Source: a virus
Taxonomy: Duplodnaviria > Caudoviricetes
Strand: one strand, 5' to 3'
Length of the DNA: 64,000 nt
IMG/VR virus record: IMGVR_UViG_3300032330_001398
Part shown: positions 9,801-23,341 of the stretch, one piece after another
Layout: each line of letters starts with the position of its first letter
How positions within the stretch are numbered: position 1 is the first letter of the stretch
Translations under genes and position numbers: made by a program
Notes under the pieces: generated by a model
Databases searched by the model: none
Told to the model about the DNA's origin: nothing
The model's input: the letters and a program-made list of their open reading frames with translations, nothing else

Positions 9801-10876
9801 ATGTCTAATCCTCCCAAATCTGTATCCTCAAGATCATTAGTGCTGGCACCAATTTTATAAGATGTTATTTCATGCTCCTGTGGAGCAACTTGTACAGCTT
9901 CACTATTCATCCACGGGTCTGTCCATCCCGCTATTGGATTTTTACAACCTTTATCGTATGGTAAACCTATATTTTTTCTTCTGGTCATGCAAAGCCAATC
10001 TACATATTCAGCCATTACTTTTTCATTTAAACCAATAATAGATCCATCTTTGAATAAATATTCTGACCAAGCTTTTTCTTCATTTGCTGCTGATTCAAAC
10101 ATCTTTATAGCGTCCTCTTGACATTCTTCTGCTATTTTAACGAATCCTTCTTCTGGAACAGTATGTAAAATCTTTAGAATTTCTTGAGTATTATACAAAT
10201 GTAATGCCTCATCTCGTTTAATGAGTTTAATTATATCTGCATTACCAATCATTTTCTTATTTTCTGCAAAAGCAAATGCACATATAAATGATACATAAAA
10301 TCTTACAGCCTCAAGTATATTTACACTAACTAATGTCAAGTATATTTGTTTCTTGATATCTTTTGTGCTTCCAGATTTTTTTAATTCTCGCAAAGTATTG
10401 TATTCTTTTATGGCAACATTAGCTCTTTTTAGAATTTCTTTATCTGTTAAACAACTATCTAAAATATCGCTTGGGTTACTATACACATTTTTAATTATGT
10501 ATGTGTAACTATAGCTATGAATTTGTTCAAAAAACTGCCACACATTCATACATGCTTCTAATTCTGGATTAGAAACATATTCTTGCAGCGTTGGAACTCC
10601 TCGACAGATAACACTATCCATCATTGTTTGATATTTAAGGTTGGATGTAAAGATAAATCTCTCGTTGTCTGACATTATATTGTCATTCTTGAAATCATTT
10701 CTATCTTTTTTCAATTCGATTTCTTCTGGCCTCCAAAAAAATTCCATCTGCTTCTTGAATAAATCAAAAAATACTGGATATTTGAATTTGTCATATCTCT
10801 GCAAAGATAAATCTTCGCCAAGAAATAAAGGTTGAGATAGATAATCGATATTGTTTTTATTCAAAATTGTTTTCAT
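9797..10876 (-). CDS. nrdB: Ribonucleotide reductase class Ia beta subunit
   Basis: FFWRPEE, EQIHSYSY, LEAVRFYVSF, RDEALH, VAPQE.EI.SY. Confidence 0.96.
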   Translation of the reverse strand: MKTILNKNNIDYLSQPLFLGEDLSLQRYDKFKYPVFFDLFKKQMEFFWRPEEIELKKDRNDFKNDNIMSDNERFIFTSNLKYQTMMDSVICRGVPTLQEYVSNPELEACMNVWQFFEQIHSYSYTYIIKNVYSNPSDILDSCLTDKEILKRANVAIKEYNTLRELKKSGSTKDIKKQIYLTLVSVNILEAVRFYVSFICAFAFAENKKMIGNADIIKLIKRDEALHLYNTQEILKILHTVPEEGFVKIAEECQEDAIKMFESAANEEKAWSEYLFKDGSIIGLNEKVMAEYVDWLCMTRRKNIGLPYDKGCKNPIAGWTDPWMNSEAVQVAPQEHEITSYKIGASTNDLEDTDLGGLDI

Positions 10877-11481
10877 GTTGGTGCCCTGCGCATTACTGTG
10901 TCTGCCGCGTATTCACTAATTGAGTATCCTAATTTTGTTGCGGTATTTTTTACTTTAACATATCCTTCTTCTGGATATAGTCCATTATGTTCGAATTGAA
11001 TTATCTTTGGCAGTGGATATTTATTTAATTCACATTCATTCAAGTAATCTTCTAATATGACAATATCATGACCCTCTGTGTCTATTTTAAGCATATCCAA
11101 AGACTTAACTCTATATTCGTCAATTACGGTAGATAGTCTTACTGTTTTTACAGTGTCTTTTTTAACTATATCAGATATTGGTAGATTTCTTTCGTTAAGA
11201 ACTTTAATAACAAATTCGTGAGGTTTACCAACTGAACTTGATCCAATAAACCACCAAGGAAGATCATATTGATCAATAGTTTCTTGAGCAACATAATAAA
11301 TATCTATTGATCCCTGCTTATTAGATATTGCTACATTTAGTTTTTCAACGTTTAATCTATTTGGTAGTTGATCTAATAGATGCTTCAAAGGCTCAATTGA
11401 TATTCCATTAATTGTATCTGATGATTTCTCTATTAAGCTATCAAAATTTGCTGTTCCGATTTCAATAAAATTATAGTGCAT
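10873..11481 (-). CDS. FkbM-family methyltransferase
   Basis: FIEIG, SIEP, NVAIS, LKIDTEGHD, IQFEH. Confidence 0.85.
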   Translation of the reverse strand: MHYNFIEIGTANFDSLIEKSSDTINGISIEPLKHLLDQLPNRLNVEKLNVAISNKQGSIDIYYVAQETIDQYDLPWWFIGSSSVGKPHEFVIKVLNERNLPISDIVKKDTVKTVRLSTVIDEYRVKSLDMLKIDTEGHDIVILEDYLNECELNKYPLPKIIQFEHNGLYPEEGYVKVKNTATKLGYSISEYAADTVMRRAPT

Positions 11482-11487
11482 ATTTTC

Positions 11488-11895
11488 TTATTTATCCTTA
11501 AGTGGACCATTTACAACCCATGCGTCACACGTTCTGGTGCCAGCGCATTTAAAATCAAATAATTCGCAATAACCCAAATCTGCCAAATCGATAATTTCTT
11601 TAGCATCCTCCATCTCTGACGCTAACCCTTTTTGGATACAATTTATCATCTTTTCTTTAACTATGAATGCCGCACAATTGGAACACCTCATAGTTTTAAC
11701 TTGATCGATTGACGTTTTAAATTGATCCGCTTTCTTTTTCCAGTATTTTTTATCATCATTATTTGGATTAGCTGGACCATAGTTTGCAATATCAATAGCG
11801 CTTTGTCTATTTTTAAGATTAACTGTAATGTCCTGAGTTGCTGGTGGGCATTCTATTTTAGCATCAACTTTATAGATCAGATCAGATTTTTTCAT
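11488..11895 (-). CDS. Cys-rich hypothetical protein between nrdA and nrdB
   Basis: CSNCAAF...GYCELFDFKCAGTRTCDAW; likely start MKKSDL at 11895. Confidence 0.65.
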   Translation of the reverse strand: MKKSDLIYKVDAKIECPPATQDITVNLKNRQSAIDIANYGPANPNNDDKKYWKKKADQFKTSIDQVKTMRCSNCAAFIVKEKMINCIQKGLASEMEDAKEIIDLADLGYCELFDFKCAGTRTCDAWVVNGPLKDK

Positions 11896-11905
11896 ATTAC
11901 GTTCC

Positions 11906-14134
11906 TCATATTGAACAAGATCCAGATTCGCAACCGGAAGATTTTTCTGTCTGACCGTCGCCATCTGGGGTGTTACAGTAATAAAAATTCTTTACACCAT
12001 ATTTATACCCATAAATTTGATCTTTGATTAAAACGCTCAATGGTATATTACCCTCTGGAAAATGAGCATAATTATAGTACAAATTAACACTAATACTCAT
12101 ATCCACAAATTTTTGTAGAATAGCACAAATATTTAGTATTGCCTTGTTATTTTCCATTTCCCAAGCTAGTGTATAGTAATTTTTGCGAGATGAATAATTG
12201 GGCACCAACTGCTTTAAAACTCCATTCTTAGCCTTTTTGTAAGAAAGTAGGCTTCTGACAGGTTCAATGCCGTTTGTGCTGTTCTGGATGACGCTAGAGG
12301 ACTCACAGGGCATTATAGCGGTCAGTGTTGAGTGTCTTAGTCCATGCTGCTTGATTCTGCTCCTAAGACCCTCCCAATCCATAGTATACTCTGGCTTAAC
12401 CAGTTCGTCAACTGTTTTTTTGTACCAATCTAAAGGAAGTAATCCTCTAGAATATTTAGTTTCATTGAATTTATTGCAAGAACCAAGTTCCGCTGCCAAG
12501 CGGCATGATTCATTAAGTAAATTCCACTGAATCTTTTCCATTGTTGAGTGAATTAACGGCAGAGTATCTGGATCATCATACTTTAGCTTGTGCTTGGCTA
12601 AGAATCCAGCAAGATTGGTTATTCCTATACCTAGTGATCTACGATTTTTAGTAAAATTTTCTCCAGCAGCTACCGGATAATCTTGATAATCTATAACTGA
12701 CTCTAAGGTTCTCACGGCTATCCTGCAAGCACTAGCAATATCATTATCATTGTCCAATTCTGTCAGGTTTAACGCCGATAGAATACAAATACCTATTTCA
12801 CCCTCTTTATCGTCAATAGATTTAATTGGTTTGGTTGGATGAATAATTTCTTGACATAGATTACTCATATAAACTGGAATATCCCATGATCCATGCTCAT
12901 TAGCATTGTCTATGTTCATAACATAAATACGTCCAGTTTCAAGTCTTTCTTTTGTAAAGATTTCCGCTAACTTTCTAGCATTAATCTTTTTCTTCATCTT
13001 GATATGTCTAGAGTTCTCATATTTCTCATATAATTTCTTGAAATCTTCATTGTTATTCATAGAACTATAAAGACCACAGGTTTCTTCTGGACTAAATAGT
13101 GTGATATCCTCATTCTTAATTAGTCGTTCATAGAATAACTTATTGAACTGAACAGAATAATCTAACTTGCGTACTCTATTATCGTCGGTTCCAGCATTAT
13201 TCTTGAGGCATACAATATCTTCTATTTCATAGTGCCAAAAAGGAATATGAACCGTCGCTGAACCGCCCCTAATGCCATTTTGACTTGTGGCTTTTACAGT
13301 AGATTCGAAAATCTTAAGGTAGGGAATTAGTCCAGTATGTATAACTTCTCCACCGCGAATACTAGCATTTATTGGACGAATGCGACCGATATTTAAACCA
13401 ATACCAGCACGGCGGGCAGTATATTTGCCAACAGCATGAATGCTAGAAAAAATAGAATCTAAATCGTCTTCAACGTCAACTAGTACACAGCTAGCGAACT
13501 GTTTGATTTTAGTTCTAACGCCAGCCATAATTGGTGTGGGAAGATTGATTTTAAATGTTGAGAAGCATTCATAAGCATCCTTGACTTCATCAACAACATT
13601 GAATAGAGCCATTGCTATTGTGATGTATGCAAACTGTGGAGTTTCATACATCTCGCCAGTAGCTCTATTTTTGACGAGATACTTATCTATCATTTGCTGT
13701 AGACCAGCGTATGTGTAAAGATAATCTCTATCGTGATCAATGCAGGATTCTATTTCTTTAATATCTTCCTTTGACCACTTTTCAAATAATGCGGGATCAT
13801 AAATACCCTTCTCAATATTTGACTTTATATGTTTAGATAGCGATGGAGGACTATCATGCTTCTCCCACAAATCTTTCCGTAAAGACATATTCAATAGTCT
13901 AGAAGCGACATATTGATAATTGGGTTTTGATGGGGAAGTCAGGTCATTTGCTGACTTAACAAGAATTTGGTGGATTTCTTTGGTGGTAATGCCATCTCTT
14001 AATGAGAGCTTGGCATTCATCTCTATGTCTGACCAAGAAACATTATTGATATCCTTAATCGCCCACTCTACAACCTTATGAATCTTTTCTACTGTATACT
14101 TTTCAAAACTTCCATTTCTTTTCTGTACTTGCAT
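11906..14134 (-). CDS. nrdA: Ribonucleotide reductase class Ia alpha subunit with ATP cone
   Basis: VQKRNG ATP cone, QFASCVL, SNLCQEI, STNGIEP, FYY, C-terminal CESGSC. Confidence 0.97.
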   Translation of the reverse strand: MQVQKRNGSFEKYTVEKIHKVVEWAIKDINNVSWSDIEMNAKLSLRDGITTKEIHQILVKSANDLTSPSKPNYQYVASRLLNMSLRKDLWEKHDSPPSLSKHIKSNIEKGIYDPALFEKWSKEDIKEIESCIDHDRDYLYTYAGLQQMIDKYLVKNRATGEMYETPQFAYITIAMALFNVVDEVKDAYECFSTFKINLPTPIMAGVRTKIKQFASCVLVDVEDDLDSIFSSIHAVGKYTARRAGIGLNIGRIRPINASIRGGEVIHTGLIPYLKIFESTVKATSQNGIRGGSATVHIPFWHYEIEDIVCLKNNAGTDDNRVRKLDYSVQFNKLFYERLIKNEDITLFSPEETCGLYSSMNNNEDFKKLYEKYENSRHIKMKKKINARKLAEIFTKERLETGRIYVMNIDNANEHGSWDIPVYMSNLCQEIIHPTKPIKSIDDKEGEIGICILSALNLTELDNDNDIASACRIAVRTLESVIDYQDYPVAAGENFTKNRRSLGIGITNLAGFLAKHKLKYDDPDTLPLIHSTMEKIQWNLLNESCRLAAELGSCNKFNETKYSRGLLPLDWYKKTVDELVKPEYTMDWEGLRSRIKQHGLRHSTLTAIMPCESSSVIQNSTNGIEPVRSLLSYKKAKNGVLKQLVPNYSSRKNYYTLAWEMENNKAILNICAILQKFVDMSISVNLYYNYAHFPEGNIPLSVLIKDQIYGYKYGVKNFYYCNTPDGDGQTEKSSGCESGSCSI

Positions 14135-14161: not shown

Positions 14162-14791
14162 CTAGCTGTTCCACCAATGATTCAAAATTTTTGTAACTAT
14201 CCAATTAATAATGATGGGTAAAAGAACATTTATTATCAGAATAGTTAGTATAACTGATCCACAAACAATTTCTTTGTCATTTTTTGCGTTTTCTAAGATA
14301 AAATCATAGCATTGTTTTCTAAGTTTTTTCTTTTCGCTTCGTGTTGCATTTTTAATGTCTCGTTCTGAACTGACTATTGTAGCCCATTCGCCACCATATT
14401 GCAAGCATCGTTTAGCGATTTTTCTTCTACTGTCATCTTGATATTCCAAGTTGATATCATTAGCAATACCGATTAAATATGAATCATCGTTTGATCCAAA
14501 TTTTAATGTTCCAGTATAGTCAAACTTTATATCTGGAAAATGTTTGATTTTTATTACGCCACCATCTTTTCCAAGCGTCATTCCTATAATATTTAGATTG
14601 AACTTGATAAATTTTTCAATAGTAGCTATTGGTAGATTATTGTTAAAGTTGATATCAACAGAGTCATTTTTATTGATTACCGAAACATCTATTGGAGATG
14701 GACATTGAACAGACATTGTTCCCATCTTATAGCCGGATGAAGAAAAAATGCTAATCAGAATATCTTTTATTTTACTTATATCGTAATTCAT
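14162..14791 (-). CDS. Hypothetical protein with C-terminal TM segment
   Basis: Hydrophobic C-terminus VILTILIINVLLPIIINWIV. Confidence 0.6.
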   Translation of the reverse strand: MNYDISKIKDILISIFSSSGYKMGTMSVQCPSPIDVSVINKNDSVDINFNNNLPIATIEKFIKFNLNIIGMTLGKDGGVIKIKHFPDIKFDYTGTLKFGSNDDSYLIGIANDINLEYQDDSRRKIAKRCLQYGGEWATIVSSERDIKNATRSEKKKLRKQCYDFILENAKNDKEIVCGSVILTILIINVLLPIIINWIVTKILNHWWNS

Positions 14792-14797
14792 ATTCTA

Positions 14798-15247
14798 TCA
14801 TTTCTGTATTAAAGACCAACATAGACCCATAAAGTAATCGCTTATTTTATTTTTTTCTTCTTGAGAAAGATCATGGTTATCATCAGATACCAAATCTGAT
14901 ATTAGTTTTGTTAAACCGTCGCCAAATCCATTGTATTTTCCAACTAATTCCTCTTTAAAAAATGTTTTTCCAGCTAAAGTATAAACGTCATTTACTTGTT
15001 GTAAATTTGTATTATAGTCCTTAACTCTTGTTGCGAATTCATAATTGAAAATTGCTATTTTTGTTCTGTCTTTTGGGTCGGTGACTAAAGATGCTAATCC
15101 TTTTACAGCTTGCATTACTTCTTCGCTTGGTTTTTCAACGTCCAATATTGCTACTGGTTCTGGAATTATTGGTATGTGAATATTTTTTAGATTTGGTTCA
15201 AACAAGCTGTAAGTTATTAAAAGTAAACCGATTAACATGCGTATCAT
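14798..15247 (-). CDS. Hypothetical membrane-anchored protein
   Basis: N-terminal hydrophobic helix. Confidence 0.6.
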   Translation of the reverse strand: MIRMLIGLLLITYSLFEPNLKNIHIPIIPEPVAILDVEKPSEEVMQAVKGLASLVTDPKDRTKIAIFNYEFATRVKDYNTNLQQVNDVYTLAGKTFFKEELVGKYNGFGDGLTKLISDLVSDDNHDLSQEEKNKISDYFMGLCWSLIQK

Positions 15248-15248
15248 T

Positions 15249-15554
15249 TTATACCTCTACTTTAACTGTTGTGTCTACTACAGTTGATTGAGATTTATCA
15301 TTTAATAGTGGGAAAACTTCATCTAATTTGTCTTTTGCTGATCCTAGCTTGCTATTAACACATTCATTTCTTAATTTATACCATAGATCTATAATTTGTA
15401 TGAATTTATCATTTCCTATTGGTTGTAATGATTTATTCTTTTTCATATTTAGTAATTTGCTAATAATATAGCTTGGATTAACATAGTATGATGCTACTAA
15501 AGCTACTCCAACTAATAATGCTAATACTCTAAGTGTTGTTTCAAGGTTGAACAT
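15249..15554 (-). CDS. Hypothetical membrane protein
   Basis: N-terminal TM VLALLVGVALVASYY. Confidence 0.6.
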   Translation of the reverse strand: MFNLETTLRVLALLVGVALVASYYVNPSYIISKLLNMKKNKSLQPIGNDKFIQIIDLWYKLRNECVNSKLGSAKDKLDEVFPLLNDKSQSTVVDTTVKVEV

Positions 15555-15562
15555 ATAAACTC

Positions 15563-15868
15563 CTATTTCGATGATTTACTGTGATATGGGCATGATGTTT
15601 TGTGTCCATCTCCTTGGACAATAATTCCTGTGCCTTTGCAGATACATTTTGCTGGATCTGGATTTGTGCCATCGTTAATATCCGGTTGAGGATTTGGATC
15701 AACAACATAAACTTTGGACTCTGCATCTTTGAATGAAAGTTCAGCCTGTTGTTTCCAATCATCTATATAGGATGAATACATATCTGTAATCTCTGTTTTT
15801 GGTAGAGATTGAGCTATGTTAGATGAACATCCTAATAAGACTAAAATTAATAATAAGGTATACCTCAT
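15563..15868 (-). CDS. Putative lipoprotein with Pro-rich linker and DnaJ-like Cys motif
   Basis: Lipobox LLGC; PNPQP; CICKGTG...CPYH. Confidence 0.62.
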   Translation of the reverse strand: MRYTLLLILVLLGCSSNIAQSLPKTEITDMYSSYIDDWKQQAELSFKDAESKVYVVDPNPQPDINDGTNPDPAKCICKGTGIIVQGDGHKTSCPYHSKSSK

Positions 15869-16083
15869 GGTGTACCTCCATCGATTCCATTGTAATAATT
15901 AATATTGTCAAATCTATCTGTATATTTAGTTTCTAGCTGATTATAAGTTGCTGAACCTTGAAAATCGCTTGGTAGCGATTCATATTCTCCGGTTCTATAA
16001 CAATAAACTACGCAAGAAGCGTTTTTGATAGTTTCATTACCAGAAACCACATTTGTTACTACGTCTGTTGTTGTAATTGCCAC
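15865..16083 (-). CDS. Hypothetical protein
   Basis: 72 aa, GTG start after AAGGAG RBS. Confidence 0.6.
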   Translation of the reverse strand: MAITTTDVVTNVVSGNETIKNASCVVYCYRTGEYESLPSDFQGSATYNQLETKYTDRFDNINYYNGIDGGTP

Positions 16084-16099: not shown

Positions 16100-16993
16100 T
16101 TATGGTGTTGCTGACCACCAGATTTTTAGATTGACGAATGCTGTTGAAGAGTCTGGATTAAAATATAATGTTTGACCCGCTGTTATAGCTTTGCTTCCAG
16201 ATGTAGAACCTACACATTGATATGTTGTACTTCCACCTGCGGCTGTGAGAATTTCAAAATAATCATTTCCACAATCTGATAGTGTTAAACTATTCCAACT
16301 CCATTTAATATATCCTGTTGTATTTACTACTCTTCCAGTGTTATATGTTGCAATAGTAGATGCTACGAATGGGCTGGCTAGCGTTCCGCTTCCAGTAAAT
16401 CCAACAGCATTCCATGCGGCATTAGCTGTTCCCCAAGGATTTGGAGCGGCTGTTGTGGTCGTGGTTGACGTTGTAGTTGGTGCTGATGTGGTAGTGGTGC
16501 TTGTTGTTGTGCTGGTCGTAGTTGTACTTGTAGTAGTAGTTGTGCTAGTCGTGGTAGTCGTGGTAGTAGTTGTGGTAGTTGTACTGGTGGTGGTAGTTGT
16601 GCTGGTAGTTGTGCTGGTAGTGGTAGTTGGCGCTAGCGTGGTTGATGTTGTAGTTGTGGTGGTGGTACTAGTTGTGCTAGTTGTGGTGCTAGTTGTGGTT
16701 GTGGTTGTGGTGCTGGTTGTGGTCGGCGTTGGCGTGGTTGTTGTGCTTGTGGTGGTTGTTGTGCTTGTGGTGGTTGTAGTGCTGGTGGTAGTTGTAGTAC
16801 TAGTTGTGGTTGTGCTGCTGGTTGTGCTAGTTGTAGTGCTAGTCGTACTTGTGGTACTAGTTGTAGCTGGGCCAGAAGTGGTTGTAACACCATTGGCTGT
16901 ATACGCTACAGAATTACCAATGTATATAGATGATACTTCAGTACCACCTACATACACTTTATTTATAGAGCTAGTGCCAACTTTTAAAGTCAT
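16100..16993 (-). CDS. Thr/Ser-rich (mucin-like) putative virion fibre protein
   Basis: LKVG.SI.KVYVG N-terminus, ~145-aa poly-Thr/Ser stalk, small C-terminal beta domain. Confidence 0.7.
   Translation of the reverse strand: MTLKVGTSSINKVYVGGTEVSSIYIGNSVAYTANGVTTTSGPATTSTTSTTSTTTSTTSSTTTTSTTTTTSTTTTTSTTTTTSTTTTPTPTTTSTTTTTTTSTTTSTTSTTTTTTTSTTLAPTTTTSTTTSTTTTTSTTTTTTTTTTTTSTTTTTSTTTTSTTTSTTTTSAPTTTSTTTTTAAPNPWGTANAAWNAVGFTGSGTLASPFVASTIATYNTGRVVNTTGYIKWSWNSLTLSDCGNDYFEILTAAGGSTTYQCVGSTSGSKAITAGQTLYFNPDSSTAFVNLKIWWSATP
16450..16885. repeat. Low-complexity ACN-codon tract encoding poly-Thr/Ser
   Basis: Plus strand reads gtN-triplet runs (gtt/gtg/gta). Confidence 0.9.
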
Positions 16994-16998
16994 CTATA

Positions 16999-17280
16999 TT
17001 ACTTTATTAGGTAAACTGTTTTGGGATCTTTGGTGGATAAATTATTGTAGTCAGTTTGACTCATAGTTACAATGTTATACACCCCAGAAGCATTAGTAAT
17101 CCCAACAGTATTACTTACCACAGTATTAGGTAAATTGGCCCAGCTTGTATATTCATCTCCAATTTTAATTACTTTTGTATCAGTAGCGAAAGATGGTTCA
17201 CCAGATGCTAAGATTGTATTCTTAGATATAAACTCTGATTCTGGACCCCTTCTTAGCTGTATATCGGTTTTCTTAGACAT
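16999..17280 (-). CDS. Mtd_N-like (major tropism determinant N-terminal) tail-fibre adaptor
   Basis: IQLRRG...LASGEP.FATDT...KIGD...W..LP; C-terminal MSQTDYNNLSTKDPKTVYLI. Confidence 0.75.
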   Translation of the reverse strand: MSKKTDIQLRRGPESEFISKNTILASGEPSFATDTKVIKIGDEYTSWANLPNTVVSNTVGITNASGVYNIVTMSQTDYNNLSTKDPKTVYLIK

Positions 17281-17293
17281 ATTTCACCTTATT

Positions 17294-18739
17294 TTATGGG
17301 ATACTTGTGTTAGTAGTTCCTATTCTCCAATATGTTTTATTATTCACTGTTATTTTATTTTGTAATTCTGCTGATGGATTTTCTGGATCTGAAATTTCTA
17401 TAGGTCTAGTTAAATATTGCCAATTATTTGGATTAGAATAGTTTATAATACCATTCCATTCTGATATGTTCAATTTTTCCATAATTCTATCTATTCTACA
17501 AGCATAAGCTATTGGAATACCGTCAAGTGTCGGATCTGTTGCTAGAAATATTATTCCTATTATTTTTTCTATATCATCTATAACTGCTGTTAAAACAGAT
17601 CCAGAATCGCCAGCAACGGCTGGATGGGAATATTCTTGCGTAGTACCGATATTAAGATTACCCTCAAGAAGAATAAGATCTGAATAATATACAGTTCTTG
17701 TTAAATTAATAGTTGTGGATGGAACAAGTTTTGATCCATATGGAATTTCTTGAGTTATACCAAGACTGGCCGTTACGCCTAGCTGTTTAATAACATAACA
17801 ATCTATTTGCGCTCCGCTAGTTCTTCCGCTCATACTTGTTGAAGAATAAGCATTGAAAGACTGTAGAAGCCTATCTAATTCGTATGTTGTTGCAAATGGT
17901 AAAAAATTATCCGTTAATAATCCTAAAACTCCACTAGAAACACTACTAATTGTGTTTCCTCCGCTATTTATGTGAACTAATGCAGCATCAACATAATTTT
18001 TTGGAATTTCTGAAACAACGAATTTATATCCATCTAATTGAAAATTATTTATGAAGTTAGTTTCTGAATATCTTTTTATTTTACCAATATTGTTTTGTTC
18101 ACGGTTGTTGTATAAATCAGTTATTGATTGAGATGTTCCATCAAAAGATTCTAATAAAGATGGTTGTATTACTATATCATCTGATGTATTGAAATTATAC
18201 AATTTTAATCTATTTTCCACAGATAAATAAGTTTCACAAACAACGTGGGCTGATGTTAATCCAACTATTGAGCCATCTTCATTGTCTACAACTAAACATC
18301 CTAAAGTTCCAACACTACTATATAGATTATTTGGCGTATTTGTTTGATTATTATTAACAGCACTTATTGATATTCCTCCAATTAGAGGTCTTTTTCTAGC
18401 TCTATGAGCTAGTTGATCTTCCGTAAGACCGGTAGAGCCATAACCAGGTTGACTTGCATTCCAATCAAAACAGGCTATTTTTTTTGCTTTATTTGGAGTT
18501 TCAATAACGTCAGAAGGAAAATTTTGATCATTTATCGTTATATTTAATGGAATAATTTCTTCTGGTAACAATTCTGATAATTGTTTTTTTTCTTTGACTC
18601 CAAAAATAACACTGATTTCATCTGTAACTTGTCCATTTTTAGTCTTATTGCCAATACCAATAGAGTATACTTCTGGATGACTTTCCATATAAAGTATAGA
18701 AAAATTTTCAAAATCTTCTTTATTTTCTGGTTGAATCAT
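17294..18739 (-). CDS. NAL1-like trypsin-fold serine protease
   Basis: GIG.K.KNG...KEKK.LSEL...IP N-domain; GTLGCLV, TSAHVV (His), VDAAL (Asp), GRTSG, GDSGS (Ser). Confidence 0.8.
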   Translation of the reverse strand: MIQPENKEDFENFSILYMESHPEVYSIGIGNKTKNGQVTDEISVIFGVKEKKQLSELLPEEIIPLNITINDQNFPSDVIETPNKAKKIACFDWNASQPGYGSTGLTEDQLAHRARKRPLIGGISISAVNNNQTNTPNNLYSSVGTLGCLVVDNEDGSIVGLTSAHVVCETYLSVENRLKLYNFNTSDDIVIQPSLLESFDGTSQSITDLYNNREQNNIGKIKRYSETNFINNFQLDGYKFVVSEIPKNYVDAALVHINSGGNTISSVSSGVLGLLTDNFLPFATTYELDRLLQSFNAYSSTSMSGRTSGAQIDCYVIKQLGVTASLGITQEIPYGSKLVPSTTINLTRTVYYSDLILLEGNLNIGTTQEYSHPAVAGDSGSVLTAVIDDIEKIIGIIFLATDPTLDGIPIAYACRIDRIMEKLNISEWNGIINYSNPNNWQYLTRPIEISDPENPSAELQNKITVNNKTYWRIGTTNTSIP

Positions 18740-18753
18740 ATATTACCTATTTA

Positions 18754-20598
18754 TTACTGTGGAAAATGTACATATAATGAATATCTATTTTGGGTGGTTA
18801 CAACATTTCCGTTAGTTATATCAACACTACAAGGTTGTGGTAGTCTGTCGCTTTGAGTAGCAAATTTATAGTATTTTTGATATCTAGGATCATAATAAGC
18901 AGCTTTATACCATTCATGTAAACTTGGAATTACTGCTTTTTCCGATAGCGCTCTTTGATAATAGCCGCTATAATCTTCATTATTAGATAAATCATATGCG
19001 CCAGTTTCTGTGCTATCGGACGTTCCTCCAAAAGATGGTTTGTTATTGTGTAACCAATTACAATATCTAGCAGCATGAATCCAATTTAAGCCAACCGCTG
19101 GTCTGCTTAAATTGTAAGAATAAACAAAGTATCTATTTCCAACCGGCCGAGTGGAGTCAAATAGTAATTGGTTTCCATAACTAGATTCTAGAGCTACTAA
19201 TGAACCAGATACTAATTTCATGCCAATCGTACAGTATTTTAGATTAAGGTGTTGAGCGCCGGTTGGATCAACAGTATTTAAATATGTAACGAATTCAGAA
19301 AATGTTAGTGGGTTTTTTTTAATCCAATATGGATAATTAACTGTTCCAATATTTTGTAAACCTAGTTCTAGTGTGGATGGTATGTCATACCTATATCTAC
19401 TTTCTCCTTGTGTTATTGTGTCGCTAGGATTTGAAATATTTCCAACCTCTGCCCATAAACTACTTTCATTTTGTGGAGGTGGTGAACACCTTACAATTCT
19501 AAGTCCAGTAGGATTATTGTCACTTTTTTGTAGAGTACTATTATAATAAGTTGATAGATTTGGAGCATTTTTTGCTGGAAATGTATAGTGTATCGCAACT
19601 CTTTGATTAAAGTAGGTGATTTGATCATTCGTTAATATGAAAGCGTTGTCGTATACTGATCCACCAAGAGCTACTCTAGTACTTCCAGCGTAATAAGACC
19701 CAGCACCGGCGAAATCATCTATATATTCATAAATATTTCCATCTTGACCATATGTTCCGTAATAACTTGGGTTAGTTGATGTGCTAACATTTACTGGAAG
19801 AATCTCTAGTTTTGATGTATTATTATAAGTTGGTCCTGTTCCGGCATCATTATAATACGTATAGCCAAGAGTTTGATTTCCATAGGCCGCGTATGTTATT
19901 GCTATTCCGGGAACTGCCGTTGTGGTAGTTGTTGTTGAAGTTGTTGGGCCAGATGTTGTAGTTGTTGTTGGGCCAGATGTGGTGGTGGTGGTGGTGGTTG
20001 TTGGACCAGATGTTGTGGTGGTGGTTGTTGGACCAGATGTTGTGGTCGTTGTTGGACCAGATGTAGTAGTTGGTCCAGATGTTGTTGTGGTCGTTGGACC
20101 AAGCGTGGTAGTGATAATACTACAGTCTAATGTTCCACACTCAACAGCATAAATACTTAAAGTTAATGGATTACTCCAATATCCAATTGCTGGAATTTTA
20201 GTTGAAGAAGCGTTAACAATTTTAATTGATATTTCGTCATTATTACTAACATATGAGTAAGCTATTACTGTTCCAGATAAAAGTTCTCTTGATGGAGAAA
20301 CCGATATAGAATATGCTTTTGATGTTAAAACGCCGGGAACATTTACTGTTAGAGTGTGACTTGAATTTACTAATATTTCTGGGAGAGTATAAACGCAAGA
20401 TCTACGTGTAAAAATATTATTGTTGTTATCTCCACCAATTGATGGTAGTTGACTCCAAGTTTTTACACCGTCACCAACTTTTAATAAATTTGCATCGATA
20501 GCAAAAGCTGGTTCTCCAGAAGCTAAAACTGGATTTGCATCATTAAACTCAGAAAGAGGTCCGCGACGAATTTTAATAGTATCATAAAAAGTAGTCAC
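18754..20598 (-). CDS. Fibre/adhesin: Mtd_N + Thr-rich linker + FGE-sulfatase/C-type-lectin-fold domain
   Basis: IKIRRG..LASGEP..LKVGDG; (SGPTTTT)n; SYYGTYGQDGNIYE, WIHAARYCNWLHN, ETGAY, EWYKAAYY. Confidence 0.8.
   Translation of the reverse strand: MTTFYDTIKIRRGPLSEFNDANPVLASGEPAFAIDANLLKVGDGVKTWSQLPSIGGDNNNNIFTRRSCVYTLPEILVNSSHTLTVNVPGVLTSKAYSISVSPSRELLSGTVIAYSYVSNNDEISIKIVNASSTKIPAIGYWSNPLTLSIYAVECGTLDCSIITTTLGPTTTTTSGPTTTSGPTTTTTSGPTTTTTTSGPTTTTTTTTSGPTTTTTSGPTTSTTTTTTAVPGIAITYAAYGNQTLGYTYYNDAGTGPTYNNTSKLEILPVNVSTSTNPSYYGTYGQDGNIYEYIDDFAGAGSYYAGSTRVALGGSVYDNAFILTNDQITYFNQRVAIHYTFPAKNAPNLSTYYNSTLQKSDNNPTGLRIVRCSPPPQNESSLWAEVGNISNPSDTITQGESRYRYDIPSTLELGLQNIGTVNYPYWIKKNPLTFSEFVTYLNTVDPTGAQHLNLKYCTIGMKLVSGSLVALESSYGNQLLFDSTRPVGNRYFVYSYNLSRPAVGLNWIHAARYCNWLHNNKPSFGGTSDSTETGAYDLSNNEDYSGYYQRALSEKAVIPSLHEWYKAAYYDPRYQKYYKFATQSDRLPQPCSVDITNGNVVTTQNRYSLYVHFPQ
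19917..20112. repeat. Variable-length SGP-Tn peptide repeat
   Basis: gttgg(a/g/t)ccagatgt unit repeated ~6 times with different Thr run lengths. Confidence 0.88.
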
Positions 20599-20610
20599 AG
20601 GCTATCCCTA

Positions 20611-20814
20611 TTAATGTGTTAAGGATTGTATGAATTGATCTATCAACTCTGGAGTCCACAGTAATTGAGCAATAGCTAGTGCTTGTGGATGTTCTTCTGG
20701 TGGCAAGTCTCCATTTGGAAGATAAGTTGCTCTACCTAGTGGCGCTAATGGATCATCTAATTTAATCCTCACAACTATAACACCATTTGGGAATATATCT
20801 GTTCTTATTATCAT
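20611..20814 (-). CDS. Hypothetical protein (possible fibre chaperone)
   Basis: 67 aa ending LWTPELI, directly upstream of the fibre gene. Confidence 0.5.
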   Translation of the reverse strand: MIIRTDIFPNGVIVVRIKLDDPLAPLGRATYLPNGDLPPEEHPQALAIAQLLWTPELIDQFIQSLTH

Positions 20815-20824
20815 TAGTTGTTCC

Positions 20825-21742
20825 TTAAAATACTTCGTTAATAGTCCAAGTTATTTTTCTTGCTGGGAATCCGTCAACGTCACTAAATACCCATGAACCA
20901 TTAGCTGCTAGCATTTCTTCTGCATCATCTTGTCTAATCCAAAAACTTCCATCTGGTTGATCGTGACGCTTATCGCCACCATTCCAAATTCCCCAACTAT
21001 TTTGAACTAAAAATAATGTTTCGTTGTATATCTCGCGTGTATCATCCATTCCTACCCAAGCCATCGCGTGACCCCAATTTCCACTTCTTTTTGCTATACC
21101 ATTTTTATCTCTGCGAGAAGAAAATCCAGAATTACTACATACAGAAATTGAATAACCGTTGGCTAAAGCATCTCTAGCTTGAGCAACAGTATTAACTAAA
21201 CTAATAGTTTTAACTTGGTGTTTTTTAGCTTCGTTAACTAAATCGTCTGGTATTCCGCGACTACCCCATTTTCCACCAATAGCGCTATATTCTGATAGAT
21301 CTATATCGCCATATTGTTGACGTAGCAATATTCCACCAGTTTGATGAACAAACCTTGCGGCAGCGGAACAACTCATACCTTCGCCAGCATAACCTCTTGA
21401 TCCATAAATAGCTTCTGTTGCACCTTTGGCAACAAATTCTTCGCGTTCGCCACCTATTATTTCGCAGCAGCGTGTAACGTCAACGCTGTTTCGCGTAGCA
21501 TGGCTGACACAATCACCTTGGACCTGTCTTTCTGACCGGCCAAAATCTGGATCGTATTTCATGATACTTTTAAAAAGTAAAGCTAACTTACCTTCGCCAG
21601 TACCAGATAAATTATATGCTGATGCGCCGAATAGAGGGTGTGGCAATTCTCCTAAGAGTTTCGCCACATCCTCTGGGTCGCACCAAGAGCCATTAAATCC
21701 ATCTTTATAAGCTTTTAATAGCTCACTTGGAGTTTTAAACAT
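20825..21742 (-). CDS. Papain-like cysteine peptidase (C1)
   Basis: QVQGDCVSHA (Gln/Cys), GHAM (His), VQNSWG (Asn). Confidence 0.88.
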   Translation of the reverse strand: MFKTPSELLKAYKDGFNGSWCDPEDVAKLLGELPHPLFGASAYNLSGTGEGKLALLFKSIMKYDPDFGRSERQVQGDCVSHATRNSVDVTRCCEIIGGEREEFVAKGATEAIYGSRGYAGEGMSCSAAARFVHQTGGILLRQQYGDIDLSEYSAIGGKWGSRGIPDDLVNEAKKHQVKTISLVNTVAQARDALANGYSISVCSNSGFSSRRDKNGIAKRSGNWGHAMAWVGMDDTREIYNETLFLVQNSWGIWNGGDKRHDQPDGSFWIRQDDAEEMLAANGSWVFSDVDGFPARKITWTINEVF

Positions 21743-21752
21743 TATATGTTCC

Positions 21753-21962
21753 TTACTTTGTGTTATCTTTAACCCATTTTACTGCTGAGTCGATTAGAAT
21801 TGTTACTACTGGAACAACTAATGCGGTGCCAGCACCAAGATCGATGTTGGATAAATTCTGACCGACATAAGTTAAAACAGCAGCTAAACCTACTAATACA
21901 GCATTTTTGGCTAACGATAAAGCATCGTTCTTGTTAAATTCGAAAGCTTTTGAGTCTAACAT
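21753..21962 (-). CDS. Holin-like small two-TM protein
   Basis: 69 aa, two hydrophobic helices, charged C-terminus, next to the peptidase. Confidence 0.55.
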   Translation of the reverse strand: MLDSKAFEFNKNDALSLAKNAVLVGLAAVLTYVGQNLSNIDLGAGTALVVPVVTILIDSAVKWVKDNTK

Positions 21963-21964
21963 TA

Positions 21965-22558
21965 TTATACCTCTTTGAGTTCTGAGACACTGACTAAAAA
22001 ACCACCATGTTCATGATCGTTTATTTTATATGGATATCCGGTCATCTGAACAAGTTTTCCATCACAGTTTTTGCTAACCCTCATGAATTTTCTATTCATT
22101 TCTAAACAAGATTTGAATTCTGCTAAAAATTCTTCTCTTTCATCTTCGTCTATATATGAAACCCAATCAAAACCTTCTGCGTGTTGTAGCTTATTAGCTG
22201 TTAACCTACAAAAGTTTTCATTGGACCAAGTTATTCTTCCTTTACTATCGGTTTCAAACAAAGAAACTAAACTATAATGTAAAGCTGCTTTTGTTCGTTG
22301 TTCGATAATTTTTTGACGCATCTCCATCCTGTGACAAGTAGTTCTTAAATCAACCACAGCATCTTTTAAACTATTTCCACCATTTGTGGTTAGTTCCTTC
22401 TTAATATCATTTATAGCTTTACTTACTAACTCTTGACCATTCATTAATTTGATAACTGGAACAACAACCTTAACCCAAATTAAGCTAAAGAAAGTTCCAA
22501 CACCACCAAGTAAACTTAAGATAAGAGTTACATACTCTGGATTTTTAAAATCTATCAT
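21965..22558 (-). CDS. Membrane-anchored PAS-domain protein
   Basis: N-terminal TM; NGGNSLKDAV; FETDSKGRITWSNENFCRLT...GFDWVSYIDEDERE PAS signature. Confidence 0.8.
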   Translation of the reverse strand: MIDFKNPEYVTLILSLLGGVGTFFSLIWVKVVVPVIKLMNGQELVSKAINDIKKELTTNGGNSLKDAVVDLRTTCHRMEMRQKIIEQRTKAALHYSLVSLFETDSKGRITWSNENFCRLTANKLQHAEGFDWVSYIDEDEREEFLAEFKSCLEMNRKFMRVSKNCDGKLVQMTGYPYKINDHEHGGFLVSVSELKEV

Positions 22559-22584
22559 GATTTCCCCAAAGTGATGCGATTAAT

Positions 22585-22614
22585 GGTGCCCTATAACATG
22601 AGCTATAAGGCACC
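22585..22614 (-). terminator. Stem-loop downstream of ORF 22631-23257
   Basis: GGTGCC-CTATA...TATA-AGGCACC inverted repeat. Confidence 0.5.
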
Positions 22615-22630
22615 TTTAATCTATATTAAA

Positions 22631-23257: not shown

Positions 23258-23341
23258 AGATATTTCTCCTAGTAAAATAATTTAGTAAATTTGTGATATC
23301 CATGTCCTTACAAAGTCCTAGTCCTAACTGTTAATACACGA

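Follow-up and report, generated by a model that had tools for sequence, protein, structure and literature searches.

A PAS-domain membrane protein, a holin-like protein and a papain-type peptidase head a conserved block of uncultured aquatic phages, a probable non-canonical lysis module

The gene family described here bears on the means by which many abundant aquatic phages, which carry no recognisable endolysin, lyse their hosts. The locus lies in a window of 64,000 nucleotides (the whole stretch of DNA that was analysed; IMG/VR record IMGVR_UViG_3300032330_001398, Caudoviricetes). A first-pass annotation, made from the letters alone, had read three adjoining genes of this window as a lysis cassette, with a PAS sensor gating the timing of lysis and a papain-type protease in the endolysin position. 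We asked whether these genes could form such a cassette. The results obtained suggest that the trio opens a conserved module for disrupting the envelope, which is probably a lysis module of a non-canonical type.

The three open reading frames were found in the order described by the first-pass annotation, all on the minus strand and separated by spacers of 2-10 nt, with 10 nt between the gene of the two-TM protein (c12) and that of the peptidase. This tight packing is conserved. The features of the trio and of its surroundings in the window are as follows.

21965..22558, minus strand: TM + PAS protein, 197 aa (open reading frame; 448 homologues)
21753..21962, minus strand: two-TM protein c12, holin-like, 69 aa (alignment of 34 loci)
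20825..21742, minus strand: xylellain-type C1A (papain-family) cysteine peptidase, 305 aa (fold, conserved residues)
22585..22614, minus strand: strong terminator-like hairpin between the upstream 208-aa gene and the PAS gene (folding)
16100..20814, minus strand: lineage-specific insertion with a 67-aa open reading frame, an Mtd_N/FGE fibre gene, a trypsin-like protease and a Thr-rich fibre gene (Pfam and PHROG matches)
15563..15868, minus strand: c0a, exported Cys-rich protein, 101 aa (lipoprotein-type signal L-L-G-C)
15249..15554, minus strand: c2, membrane protein anchored N-terminally, 101 aa (in 58 loci; member of the conserved block)
14798..15247, minus strand: c0b, N-terminally anchored protein, 149 aa (domain fused ahead of the peptidase in other lineages)

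A larger conserved block, made up of genes for membrane and exported proteins, begins with the trio; its remainder is found at window positions 14162-16083. The block is split in the window by an insertion of fibre genes that pushes its downstream part away from the trio. This insertion is missing at the equivalent place in L002, L007 and others, where c39 or c0 directly follows the peptidase gene. In relatives, c0a is the conserved gene directly 3' of the peptidase gene, and its product carries the motif C-x-C-x-G-x-G...G-D-G-H...C. The lipoprotein-type signal peptide of the window's c0a makes a Gram-negative host probable. The lipobox was found only in the window's clade; c0a of other lineages shows a plain N-terminal anchor or is fused to c0b or the peptidase, and the downstream genes are therefore not canonical spanins. 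Likewise, no canonical two-component spanin pair (an outer-membrane lipoprotein with a type II inner-membrane protein, conserved together) was seen. The intergenic region ahead of the PAS gene (22559-22630), which bears the hairpin, folds with a dG of -27.1 kcal/mol (z -5.8, ViennaRNA). Of 22 distinct loci, 19 have an equivalent hairpin of different sequence, and in several of them a T-run comes after it. A simple promoter and terminator scan did not flag the hairpin of the window, and the T4 late-promoter motif TATAAATA was not enriched. Comparison of the upstream 208-aa protein with the ESM Atlas was uninformative. The term endolysin position holds only loosely and in a relative sense, since the block sits among sigma-factor, glycosyltransferase and ribonucleotide reductase (RNR) genes and not after the tail genes. 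The gene order with the membrane partners is nevertheless kept in about 70 loci despite rearrangements.

The peptidase is, by sequence, a divergent C1 member. Pfam C1 (PF00112) gave 17.4 bits, under its gathering cut-off of 20.7; a phmmer search of the sequence against PDB sequences gave nothing significant, and the profile detected caricain among PDB sequences with an E of 2.8e-4. The fold seen in the AF2 model (pLDDT 94.6) is clearly papain-type, with L and R lobes. Its best structural match was xylellain (3ois; VIA Z 21.8, rmsd 2.9 over 231 residues, Foldseek E 5e-10), and more than 300 C1 chains matched the model at a Z of at least 8. The Cys and His are located in the G-x-C and G-H-A / N-S-W-G motifs and are accompanied by the oxyanion-hole Gln, which sits 5 residues ahead of the Cys, the usual spacing being 6. 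Across 58 diverse homologues, C78, H225, W223 and W250 are invariant, and Q73 and S249 are conserved in at least 90%. The intact Q/C/H/N set reported earlier was thus borne out for the fold and for the strongly conserved Q, C and H, but N248 is a majority residue only. The window's form has no signal peptide, and its N-terminal 47 or so residues are propeptide-like and align with the propeptide of zymogens.

The peptidase does not belong to a muralytic family: the fold is C1 and not CHAP, NlpC/P60 or amidase, and Pfam gives the weak C1 match only. Among the BFVD neighbours of the model are C1 domains of phage proteins that bear the annotations peptidoglycan-binding-like, N-acetylmuramidase or copper amine oxidase. 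We know of no C1-family peptidase that cuts peptidoglycan. Papain-fold wall hydrolases are known from the CHAP, NlpC/P60 and Amidase_5/6 families (PMC10318531). Xylellain-type C1A genes have been acquired by tailed phages (PMC10380794), and no function was assigned to the phage copies in the literature found.

The peptidase family is large, with about 1,500 clusters at 50% identity, and was found only in uncultured viral contigs. A tblastn search of 50,697 genomes of cultured phages gave no match, and pattern-based scanning of GTDB representative genomes, once for the peptidase and once for a fused form (P0282), detected no relatives. In the 73 related IMG/VR loci examined (L001-L073), identity of the peptidase is 58-94%, and the gene is single copy in 5 relatives. 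About one third of the cluster representatives appear to bear intervening sequences within the peptidase gene, and the junctions that could be mapped correspond to inteins at the catalytic Cys and His:

21509..21511, minus strand: catalytic Cys78 codon, the +1 residue of intein site A in homologues (invariant)
21068..21070, minus strand: catalytic His225 codon, with intein site B directly after it in homologues (invariant)

Site A shows the junctions G-D / C...H-N / C-V-S-H in 24 representatives, and site B shows W-x-H / C...H-N / C-M in 13. Together with the invariant Cys/His dyad, inteins at both catalytic residues indicate an intact enzyme under strong constraint. Both this degree of identity across lineages and the inteins are unusual for endolysins, which counts against lysis.

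The fusions of the peptidase inform on where it acts. In 14 of 150 representatives, the peptidase is preceded by an N-terminal TM signal-anchor and the c0b domain. These N-terminal extensions of long homologues had been considered as glycosyltransferase fusions, which was rejected; they correspond to the c0b domain. Some fused peptidases add a C-terminal Zn-knuckle or thioredoxin domain, and the c0a motif is fused to the peptidase C-terminus in P0282, with a variant form in L078. These signal-anchor/c0b and Cys-rich/thioredoxin fusions indicate that the peptidase acts outside the cytoplasm, together with its neighbours.

The block belongs to a widespread group of uncultured aquatic phages of 145-175 kb, and we looked for other lytic enzymes in this group. 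Thirteen endolysin Pfam families (lysozyme, Amidase_2, Amidase_3, SLT, GH19, GH108, GH25, M15_3, M15_4, VanY, M23, NlpC/P60 and CHAP) were absent from 5-6 related IMG/VR records, two of which, G001 and G002, are 100% complete (G002 with terminal repeats). The same method finds the single-copy peptidase and a ClpP-type protease, and the controls were silent for GH19 and GH108. The scan covers relatives, one of which has a 94% identical peptidase, and a Pfam absence leaves room for a cryptic muralytic enzyme. The lack of a muramidase or amidase that the first-pass annotation had noticed in the window thus extends to the scanned relatives, and a canonical holin-endolysin pair elsewhere, with the trio not syntenic, is not what they show. 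A T4-like classification of the phage was considered on account of its rIIA, UvsX-like and RNR genes and was rejected, Gp23 and S77 not being found in relatives (with silent controls).

For passage of the peptidase across the inner membrane, c12 is the candidate hole former. It has two hydrophobic segments and a K-rich C-terminus (K-W-V-K-D-N-T-K) and is kept in 34 loci, lying directly upstream of the peptidase gene in 33 of them and about 1.1 kb upstream in L016. It is a small protein with at least one TM segment and a charged C-terminus, encoded next to a putative lytic enzyme, as holins are. No holin match was found in Pfam, PHROG or NCBIfam, even among PHROGs at an E of up to 10. The nearest named ESM-Atlas clusters, according to the language model, were 'Holin family protein' (0.95). 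The earlier description of c12 as holin-like therefore stands for its two TM segments and its placement but not for membership in any holin family by sequence. In other loci a different two-TM protein of 58 aa, c17, was found, for which holin PHROGs were the best matches in all four proteins tested, although weak (E 0.004-0.03). Among 60 loci with enough flank, which come from a few clades and are not 60 independent events, 34 have c12, 25 have c17, none has both and one has neither. Homology between c12 and c17 was rejected (hhalign probability 1.5%). This complementary distribution of c12 and the holin-like c17 gives the cassette reading real, if partial, comparative support.

A further link to lysis comes from the PAS protein. 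It consists of one N-terminal TM helix, then a long helix interrupted at N-G-G-N-S, and then the PAS domain, and in the AF2 model (pLDDT 83.6) these correspond to a helix at 7-58, a kink at 59-63, a helix at 64-94 and the PAS domain at 99-193. The parts of the protein are located as follows.

22451..22534, minus strand: N-terminal transmembrane helix, about aa 9-36 (hydrophobic stretch and helix in the model)
22361..22405, minus strand: motif I-x2-E-x3-N-x-G-x-S-x-K-D, aa 52-66 (invariant columns)
21980..22276, minus strand: PAS domain, about aa 95-193 (TIGR00229, AF2, Foldseek)

The first-pass annotation had noted a resemblance to the NGGSSLRDAV motif of actinophage lysis-cassette proteins. 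This resemblance is real: gp52 of mu1/6 and gp40 of P1312 carry H-E-L-H-P-N-[SA]-G-[SG]-S-L-R-D-A-V behind an N-terminal TM segment. The N-terminal module of the PAS protein aligned with these two proteins with an hhalign probability of 94% (E about 2e-7), and it shows the features of mu1/6 gp52-like proteins, an N-terminal TM segment followed by E-x3-N-x-G-x-S-L-[KR]-D, in invariant columns. The relative L008 matched phrog_9869 (E 1.7e-4) and phrog_1009 (E 1.5e-3), against which the PAS protein of the window reached an E of 0.06-0.07. The actinophage motif proteins adjoin annotated lysis genes in three of four phages. In Streptomyces phage mu1/6, gp52 comes after holin gp51 and endolysin gp50; in Thermobifida phage P1312, gp40 precedes an amidase; and in Arthrobacter phage Sonali, gp22 precedes endolysin gp23 and holin gp24. 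Altogether, the alignments indicate that the TM and motif module of the PAS protein is homologous to small actinophage membrane proteins encoded beside holin and endolysin genes.

The C-terminal domain is of the PAS type in both sequence and fold. TIGR00229 gave an E of 1.7e-7 and 31.4 bits (cut-off 22.9), Pfam PAS (21.6) and PAS_9 (20.9) both staying under their own cut-offs, and the Foldseek matches were the PAS domains of RsLOV, NifL and FixL (E about 1e-5). As noted before, no kinase or other output domain is present in the protein. Invariant residues of the PAS domain include W111, N113, F116, W132, R141, S150 and C151, of which S150-C151 are located on the long helix. The LOV motif N-C-R-F-L-Q is absent, and since the PAS profile found no match among PDB sequences, no cofactor could be inferred. 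From the positive-inside rule, the protein is predicted to be N-out with its PAS domain in the cytoplasm. It is missing from 5 of 34 loci with c12 and from all 25 loci of the sister lineages, and is therefore an accessory part. No match to it was obtained by tblastn against the cultured phages.

The lysis-cassette reading is thus favoured by the absence of endolysin families in relatives, the shared motif, the c12/c17 complementarity, the exported-domain fusions and a head protease of ClpP type encoded separately, and disfavoured by the missing holin-family match and the loose position of the block. We propose that the signal-less peptidase would accumulate in the cytoplasm, where it is probably latent because of its propeptide-like N-terminus. 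c12 would permeabilise the inner membrane in the manner of a holin, and the peptidase would then enter the periplasm and cleave a peptide substrate that holds the envelope together. Candidate substrates are peptidoglycan stem peptides or cross-links, or tether proteins between the wall and the outer membrane. The peptidase may cooperate there with the exported Cys-rich c0a and the membrane-anchored c0b and c2 encoded downstream. The PAS protein would be a lysis-cassette accessory akin to mu1/6 gp52, a membrane protein to which a cytoplasmic PAS domain has been added, and most likely would modulate c12.

Could the same block serve the envelope without lysis? A periplasmic peptidase with Cys-rich and thioredoxin-like partners could trim host surface or periplasmic proteins, such as receptors, in an envelope-remodelling or superinfection-exclusion module. 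Like phage exclusion loci, the block encodes many small membrane proteins, its neighbours are sigma-factor and RNR genes rather than tail genes, and in the lineages with Sec-type anchor fusions the peptidase could be exported well ahead of lysis. We consider this unlikely, however, since the window's stand-alone peptidase has no signal peptide and is encoded 10 nt 3' of a holin-like gene, the motif homology is specifically to lysis cassettes, and the related genomes would remain without any lytic enzyme. Quite unlikely, in our view, is that the peptidase is an accessory of lysis rather than its endolysin, a cryptic muralytic enzyme being encoded elsewhere and the peptidase performing a spanin-like last step by cutting tethers between outer membrane and wall (Lpp-, Pal- or OmpA-like). 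C1 peptidases do cut proteins and not stem peptides with D-amino acids, the structural matches include Cwp84, a C1 enzyme associated with the clostridial surface layer, a canonical spanin pair was not seen, and a Pfam-based absence of endolysins is not proof. Against this, searches with 13 families brought up no candidate muralytic domain in either of the two complete genomes, and the peptidase is the sole recognisable hydrolase of the block.

The form without signal peptide, the very high conservation and inteins typical of core enzymes, and the usual role of PAS domains as cytoplasmic regulators would also fit a cytoplasmic protease that serves host takeover, anti-defence or the processing of phage proteins, with unrelated membrane neighbours. 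This seems very unlikely given the membrane-partner order kept across so many rearranged loci and the fusions to the signal-anchor and c0a/c0b domains in 14 representatives. Finally, a virion (prohead) maturation protease, for which one might argue because neither T4-type S77 (controls silent) nor HK97-type S78 proteases were found in relatives, is hardly credible, since in G002 a ClpP-type protein that matches head maturation proteases (phrog_94, 2.9e-27) is encoded immediately upstream of the terminase, some 97 kb away from the peptidase gene, and membrane-anchored fusions would make no sense for a prohead protease.

Within the lysis reading, the gating of lysis by the PAS sensor is a tentative and doubtful addition. 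In its fullest form, which we hold to be slightly more doubtful, a membrane-tethered cytoplasmic PAS sensor of redox state, oxygen, energy charge, light or a metabolite would hold or release c12 through the N-G-x-S-L-K-D helix and so free a latent papain-type protease. This protease would be a new class of enzymatic lysin, perhaps activated by thiol/disulfide chemistry from the Cys-rich and thioredoxin partners.

Neither a C1 endolysin nor a lysis cassette with a PAS protein was described in the literature that our searches turned up. If the peptidase is the lytic enzyme, it would bring a new catalytic class (C1A papain) to phage lysins and offer a way into the study of lysis in freshwater and marine phage-host systems. 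Among sensors that set the timing of lysis, a PAS domain on a lysis-cassette membrane protein would be the first candidate for one that is cytoplasmic and reads a small molecule or redox state. The shared motif ties the PAS protein to an uncharacterised actinophage lysis-cassette family, for which Streptomyces or Arthrobacter phages could serve as tractable models. Intein hot spots located at the two catalytic residues are useful in marking the peptidase as essential, and the intein-bearing peptidases are a source of natural split or caged protease variants.

Comparison with known systems places each part of the trio. The peptidase shares its fold, Cys/His dyad motifs and propeptide-like N-terminus with xylellain (Xylella fastidiosa C1A) and short bacterial C1A peptidases, but identity to xylellain is only about 19%, and the phage family has its own neighbours, its membrane and redox-domain fusions and its inteins. 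With Cwp84 of Clostridioides difficile it shares the C1 fold and the link to a cell-envelope protein, the surface layer, whereas Cwp84 is secreted by a bacterium, has lectin-like and wall-binding domains and is no phage lysis factor. The PAS protein has in common with the small actinophage TM proteins the N-terminal TM helix, the helix, the motif E-[LV]-x-x-N-x-G-x-S-L-[KR]-D-x-[VI] and a gene beside holin and/or endolysin genes (mu1/6 gp52, P1312 gp40, Sonali gp22; phrog_9869, phrog_1009). The actinophage proteins are of 91-147 aa without a C-terminal domain, whereas a PAS domain of about 100 aa is added here, in a phage whose host is probably Gram-negative.

As in holin-endolysin(-spanin) cassettes such as lambda S-R-Rz/Rz1, the gene of a small two-TM protein whose C-terminus is charged is closely linked to that of a hydrolase lacking a signal peptide, genes for exported or anchored proteins come next, and the gene of a membrane partner lies ahead of the holin-like gene, a place often taken by antiholin genes. 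Some lineages have an N-terminal signal-anchor on the enzyme, as is the case in SAR-endolysin systems (P1 Lyz, phage 21 S21/R21). In contrast to canonical cassettes, the enzyme is a C1A papain-family member, unlike the usual glycosidases, amidases, M15/M23 or CHAP/NlpC-P60 enzymes, no holin family is matched by the two-TM protein, the downstream proteins are not canonical spanins, and the genes are set among sigma-factor, glycosyltransferase and RNR genes. Finally, although the T4 RI antiholin, which mediates lysis inhibition, senses in the periplasm and has no PAS fold while the PAS domain here is predicted to be cytoplasmic, both are single-pass membrane proteins with a globular domain, encoded with a holin or holin-like protein, that could set the timing of lysis in response to a signal.

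The window is a section of a large uncultured phage genome (GC ~34%) with every gene on the minus strand, among them those for rIIA, a UvsX/RecA-like protein, DnaB, NrdA/NrdB, a ligase, a small sigma-like factor and four tRNAs. The first-pass annotation had read three adjacent genes as a putative lysis cassette in which a PAS sensor protein and a holin-like protein precede a papain-like protease in the endolysin position. The trio itself was confirmed, with gaps of 2 and 10 nt:
22558-21965, minus strand, PAS protein
21962-21753, minus strand, c12, a 69-aa two-TM holin-like protein
20825-21742, minus strand, papain-like peptidase

We looked at the peptidase (305 aa). Its score is under the Pfam C1 threshold, and the model is a confident papain fold (pLDDT 94.6), most similar among known structures to xylellain (VIA Z 21.8, Foldseek E 5e-10), with C78 and H225 invariant across 58 diverse homologues. 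Since zymogens align from residue 4 and mature papains cover only residues 48-290, the N-terminal ~47 residues resemble a propeptide. Homologues were numerous (1,548 in 90% clusters; 1,503 representatives at 50% identity) and carried by IMG/VR contigs of up to ~174 kb; none was detected in 50,697 cultured phages, and neither of two pattern-based scans over the GTDB representatives found a relative. Peptidoglycan cleavage is not known for any C1 enzyme. Neighbours of the model in BFVD included phage C1 domains within proteins annotated peptidoglycan-binding-like, N-acetylmuramidase or copper amine oxidase. Papain-fold wall hydrolases form a cluster of CHAP, NlpC/P60 and Amidase_5/6 (PMC10318531), and xylellain-type C1A genes have been acquired by tailed phages, with no role given to them (PMC10380794).

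About one third of the 50%-identity representatives examined (P0241-P0390) appeared to hold intervening sequences. Domain-split analysis found a split peptidase without N-terminal extension in 50 of 150, two fused forms being split too, and Hint and LAGLIDADG domains confirmed inteins in the split homologues tested. Canonical junctions could be located at two sites: before the catalytic C78 (junction G-D / C...H-N / C-V-S-H; 24 representatives; window 21509-21511) and directly after the catalytic H225 (W-x-H / C...H-N / C-M; 13 representatives; window 21068-21070). Some insertions were mini-inteins, others had LAGLIDADG endonucleases, and a few proteins had both; the window's allele has no intein. 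In L078, a higher-GC phage locus with a fused peptidase, an adjoining 893-aa protein (10281-12962), ATPase-like towards its N-terminus, also seems intein-bearing (end ...V-C-H-N / S).

To place the trio in its context, 73 related IMG/VR loci and the one fused-form locus were compared. The peptidase was found in 73/73 (identity 58-94%), better conserved than its neighbours. The order was a GT4 glycosyltransferase, two small genes, a sigma-like factor, the 208-aa c3, the PAS protein, c12 and the peptidase, then c0a, c7, c2, c0b and NrdA. Of the downstream products, c0a is exported and Cys-rich (C-x-C-x-G-x-G...G-D-G-H...C), c2 and c0b each have an N-terminal membrane anchor, and c7, a TM protein, is absent from the window, where an insertion parts the peptidase from the remaining genes:
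16100-20814, minus strand, fibre-gene insertion
20611-20814, minus strand, 67-aa ORF directly after the peptidase, with no homologue among the 73 related loci
18754-20598, minus strand, fibre protein (Mtd_N domain, Thr/Ser/Gly/Pro stalk, C-type-lectin-like FGE-sulfatase domain)
17294-18739, minus strand, trypsin-like protease (phrog_20754), next after the fibre protein
14798-16083, minus strand, c39, c0a, c2 and c0b, the rest of the conserved block
15563-15868, minus strand, c0a, with a DnaJ-like Zn-knuckle motif C-x(1,2)-C-x-G-x-G ... G-D-G-H ... C (window; L007, L050, L004, P0307, P0294)

Because the peptidase is kept beside c0a, c2 and c0b in the conserved order, the trio is the front of a longer run of membrane and exported protein genes. 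The fibre and trypsin-like protease genes belong to the variable insertion; Mtd_N/FGE-type fibre proteins are the kind targeted by diversity-generating retroelements.

The downstream proteins were found joined to the peptidase. In 14/150 representatives, a single protein ran from an anchor at the N-terminus through the c0b domain to the peptidase, some with an added C-terminal Zn-knuckle (the c0a motif) or C-x-P-C thioredoxin domain. Charge distribution would place the bulk of these proteins outside the cytoplasm, and the fusions suggest that the envelope compartment is where the peptidase works, alongside c0a and c0b. To get there, the stand-alone, signal-less peptidase would need a hole. c0a itself is in some phages fused to a thioredoxin domain (C-G-P-C or C-P-P-C), and together its knuckle motif and this fusion hint at thiol/disulfide chemistry beside the cysteine protease.

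c12 carries a pair of hydrophobic segments and is basic at its C-terminus, and its nearest named ESM Atlas clusters are 'Holin family protein' (0.95). Lineages without it have, 0.4-1.5 kb downstream of the peptidase, c17, a 58-aa two-TM protein with an S-R-R-F-W motif and no detectable homology to c12; holin PHROGs were the best matches of c17 in 4/4 proteins tested (E 0.004-0.03). Sixty loci had sufficient flanking sequence for a count: 34 had c12 only, 25 c17 only, none both and one neither. The pattern resembles non-orthologous replacement, with the caveat that these loci belong to a few clades.

The same annotation had seen no classical muramidase or amidase in the window, and this held in the relatives: 13 endolysin Pfam families had no match in five or six related records, including two that are 100% complete, in a search whose controls gave no signal for GH19 and GH108. 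It did recover the peptidase (single copy) and a ClpP-type protease. The latter bears on the alternative set beforehand, that the peptidase matures the virion, which is disfavoured since the complete record G002 has this separate head protease, matching head-maturation-protease PHROGs (2.9e-27) ~97 kb from the peptidase:
L079 5106-7735 (G002, 18.1-20.7 kb), ClpP-type head maturation protease, its gene immediately upstream of that for a divergent terminase large subunit

Pfam Gp23, HK97 capsid, S77 and S78 models had no match in the related genomes, which makes the head module hard to recognise.

The PAS protein (197 aa; AF2 pLDDT 83.6) combines a single TM helix at its N-terminus, a long helix with a kink at N-G-G-N-S, another helix and a PAS domain, which scores above the TIGR00229 cut-off and matches those of RsLOV, NifL and FixL in Foldseek. 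Charges flanking the TM helix would put this domain in the cytoplasm; no cofactor could be inferred from Foldseek of the model or profile comparison with PDB sequences. The proposed likeness to the NGGSSLRDAV motif proved real, at 94% probability in profile comparison, the matched proteins being small TM proteins beside lysis genes. The region I52-D66, invariant among 44 homologues, weakly matched phrog_9869 and phrog_1009, and tblastn gave weak matches (E 1 and 3) on mu1/6 gp52, whose gene follows those of endolysin gp50 and holin gp51, and P1312 gp40, which precedes an amidase gene. Searching next with gp52 itself brought in Sonali gp22, preceding endolysin gp23 and holin gp24. Of the 34 c12 loci, 29 have the PAS protein, and all c17 lineages lack it; it is thus an accessory part. 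In three of the five exceptions (L050, L052, L063) a TM and coiled-coil protein without PAS stands in its place. The PAS protein may act as a sensor, and we regard gating of lysis by PAS as improbable.

Altogether, a lysis cassette is the best explanation of the trio and a slightly favoured one, partly supported by the lack of a canonical endolysin in relatives, the shared motif, the c12/c17 exclusion, the fusions, the BFVD neighbours and the separate head protease. Its limits are that C1 enzymes are not known to cleave peptidoglycan, that the PAS protein is an accessory part, and that the downstream genes are not canonical spanins, since c0a is a lipoprotein in the window's clade only.

Finally, we looked at how the block might be transcribed. 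The stretch separating the 208-aa gene from the PAS gene holds a hairpin:
22585-22614, minus strand, strong hairpin (intergenic fold dG -27 kcal/mol)

Equivalents were found in 19/22 distinct loci (L001-L069 intergenic regions; folds of -20 to -35 kcal/mol), with structure kept and sequence divergent. In L007, L008, L017, L021 and L028 the outer stem pairs with the PAS gene ribosome-binding site. As several have a T-run, the block may be reached through terminator read-through. Upstream, the 208-aa gene leader (23258-23339, minus strand) contains G-T-G-T-A-T-T-A, an element like an extended -10 that reads G-T-G-T-A-T-A-A-T in relatives; after it come four AGGA repeats, the sole such cluster on the window's minus strand. 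Both elements are conserved in ~40 loci, and the AGGA cluster resembles CsrA/RsmA-type binding site clusters.
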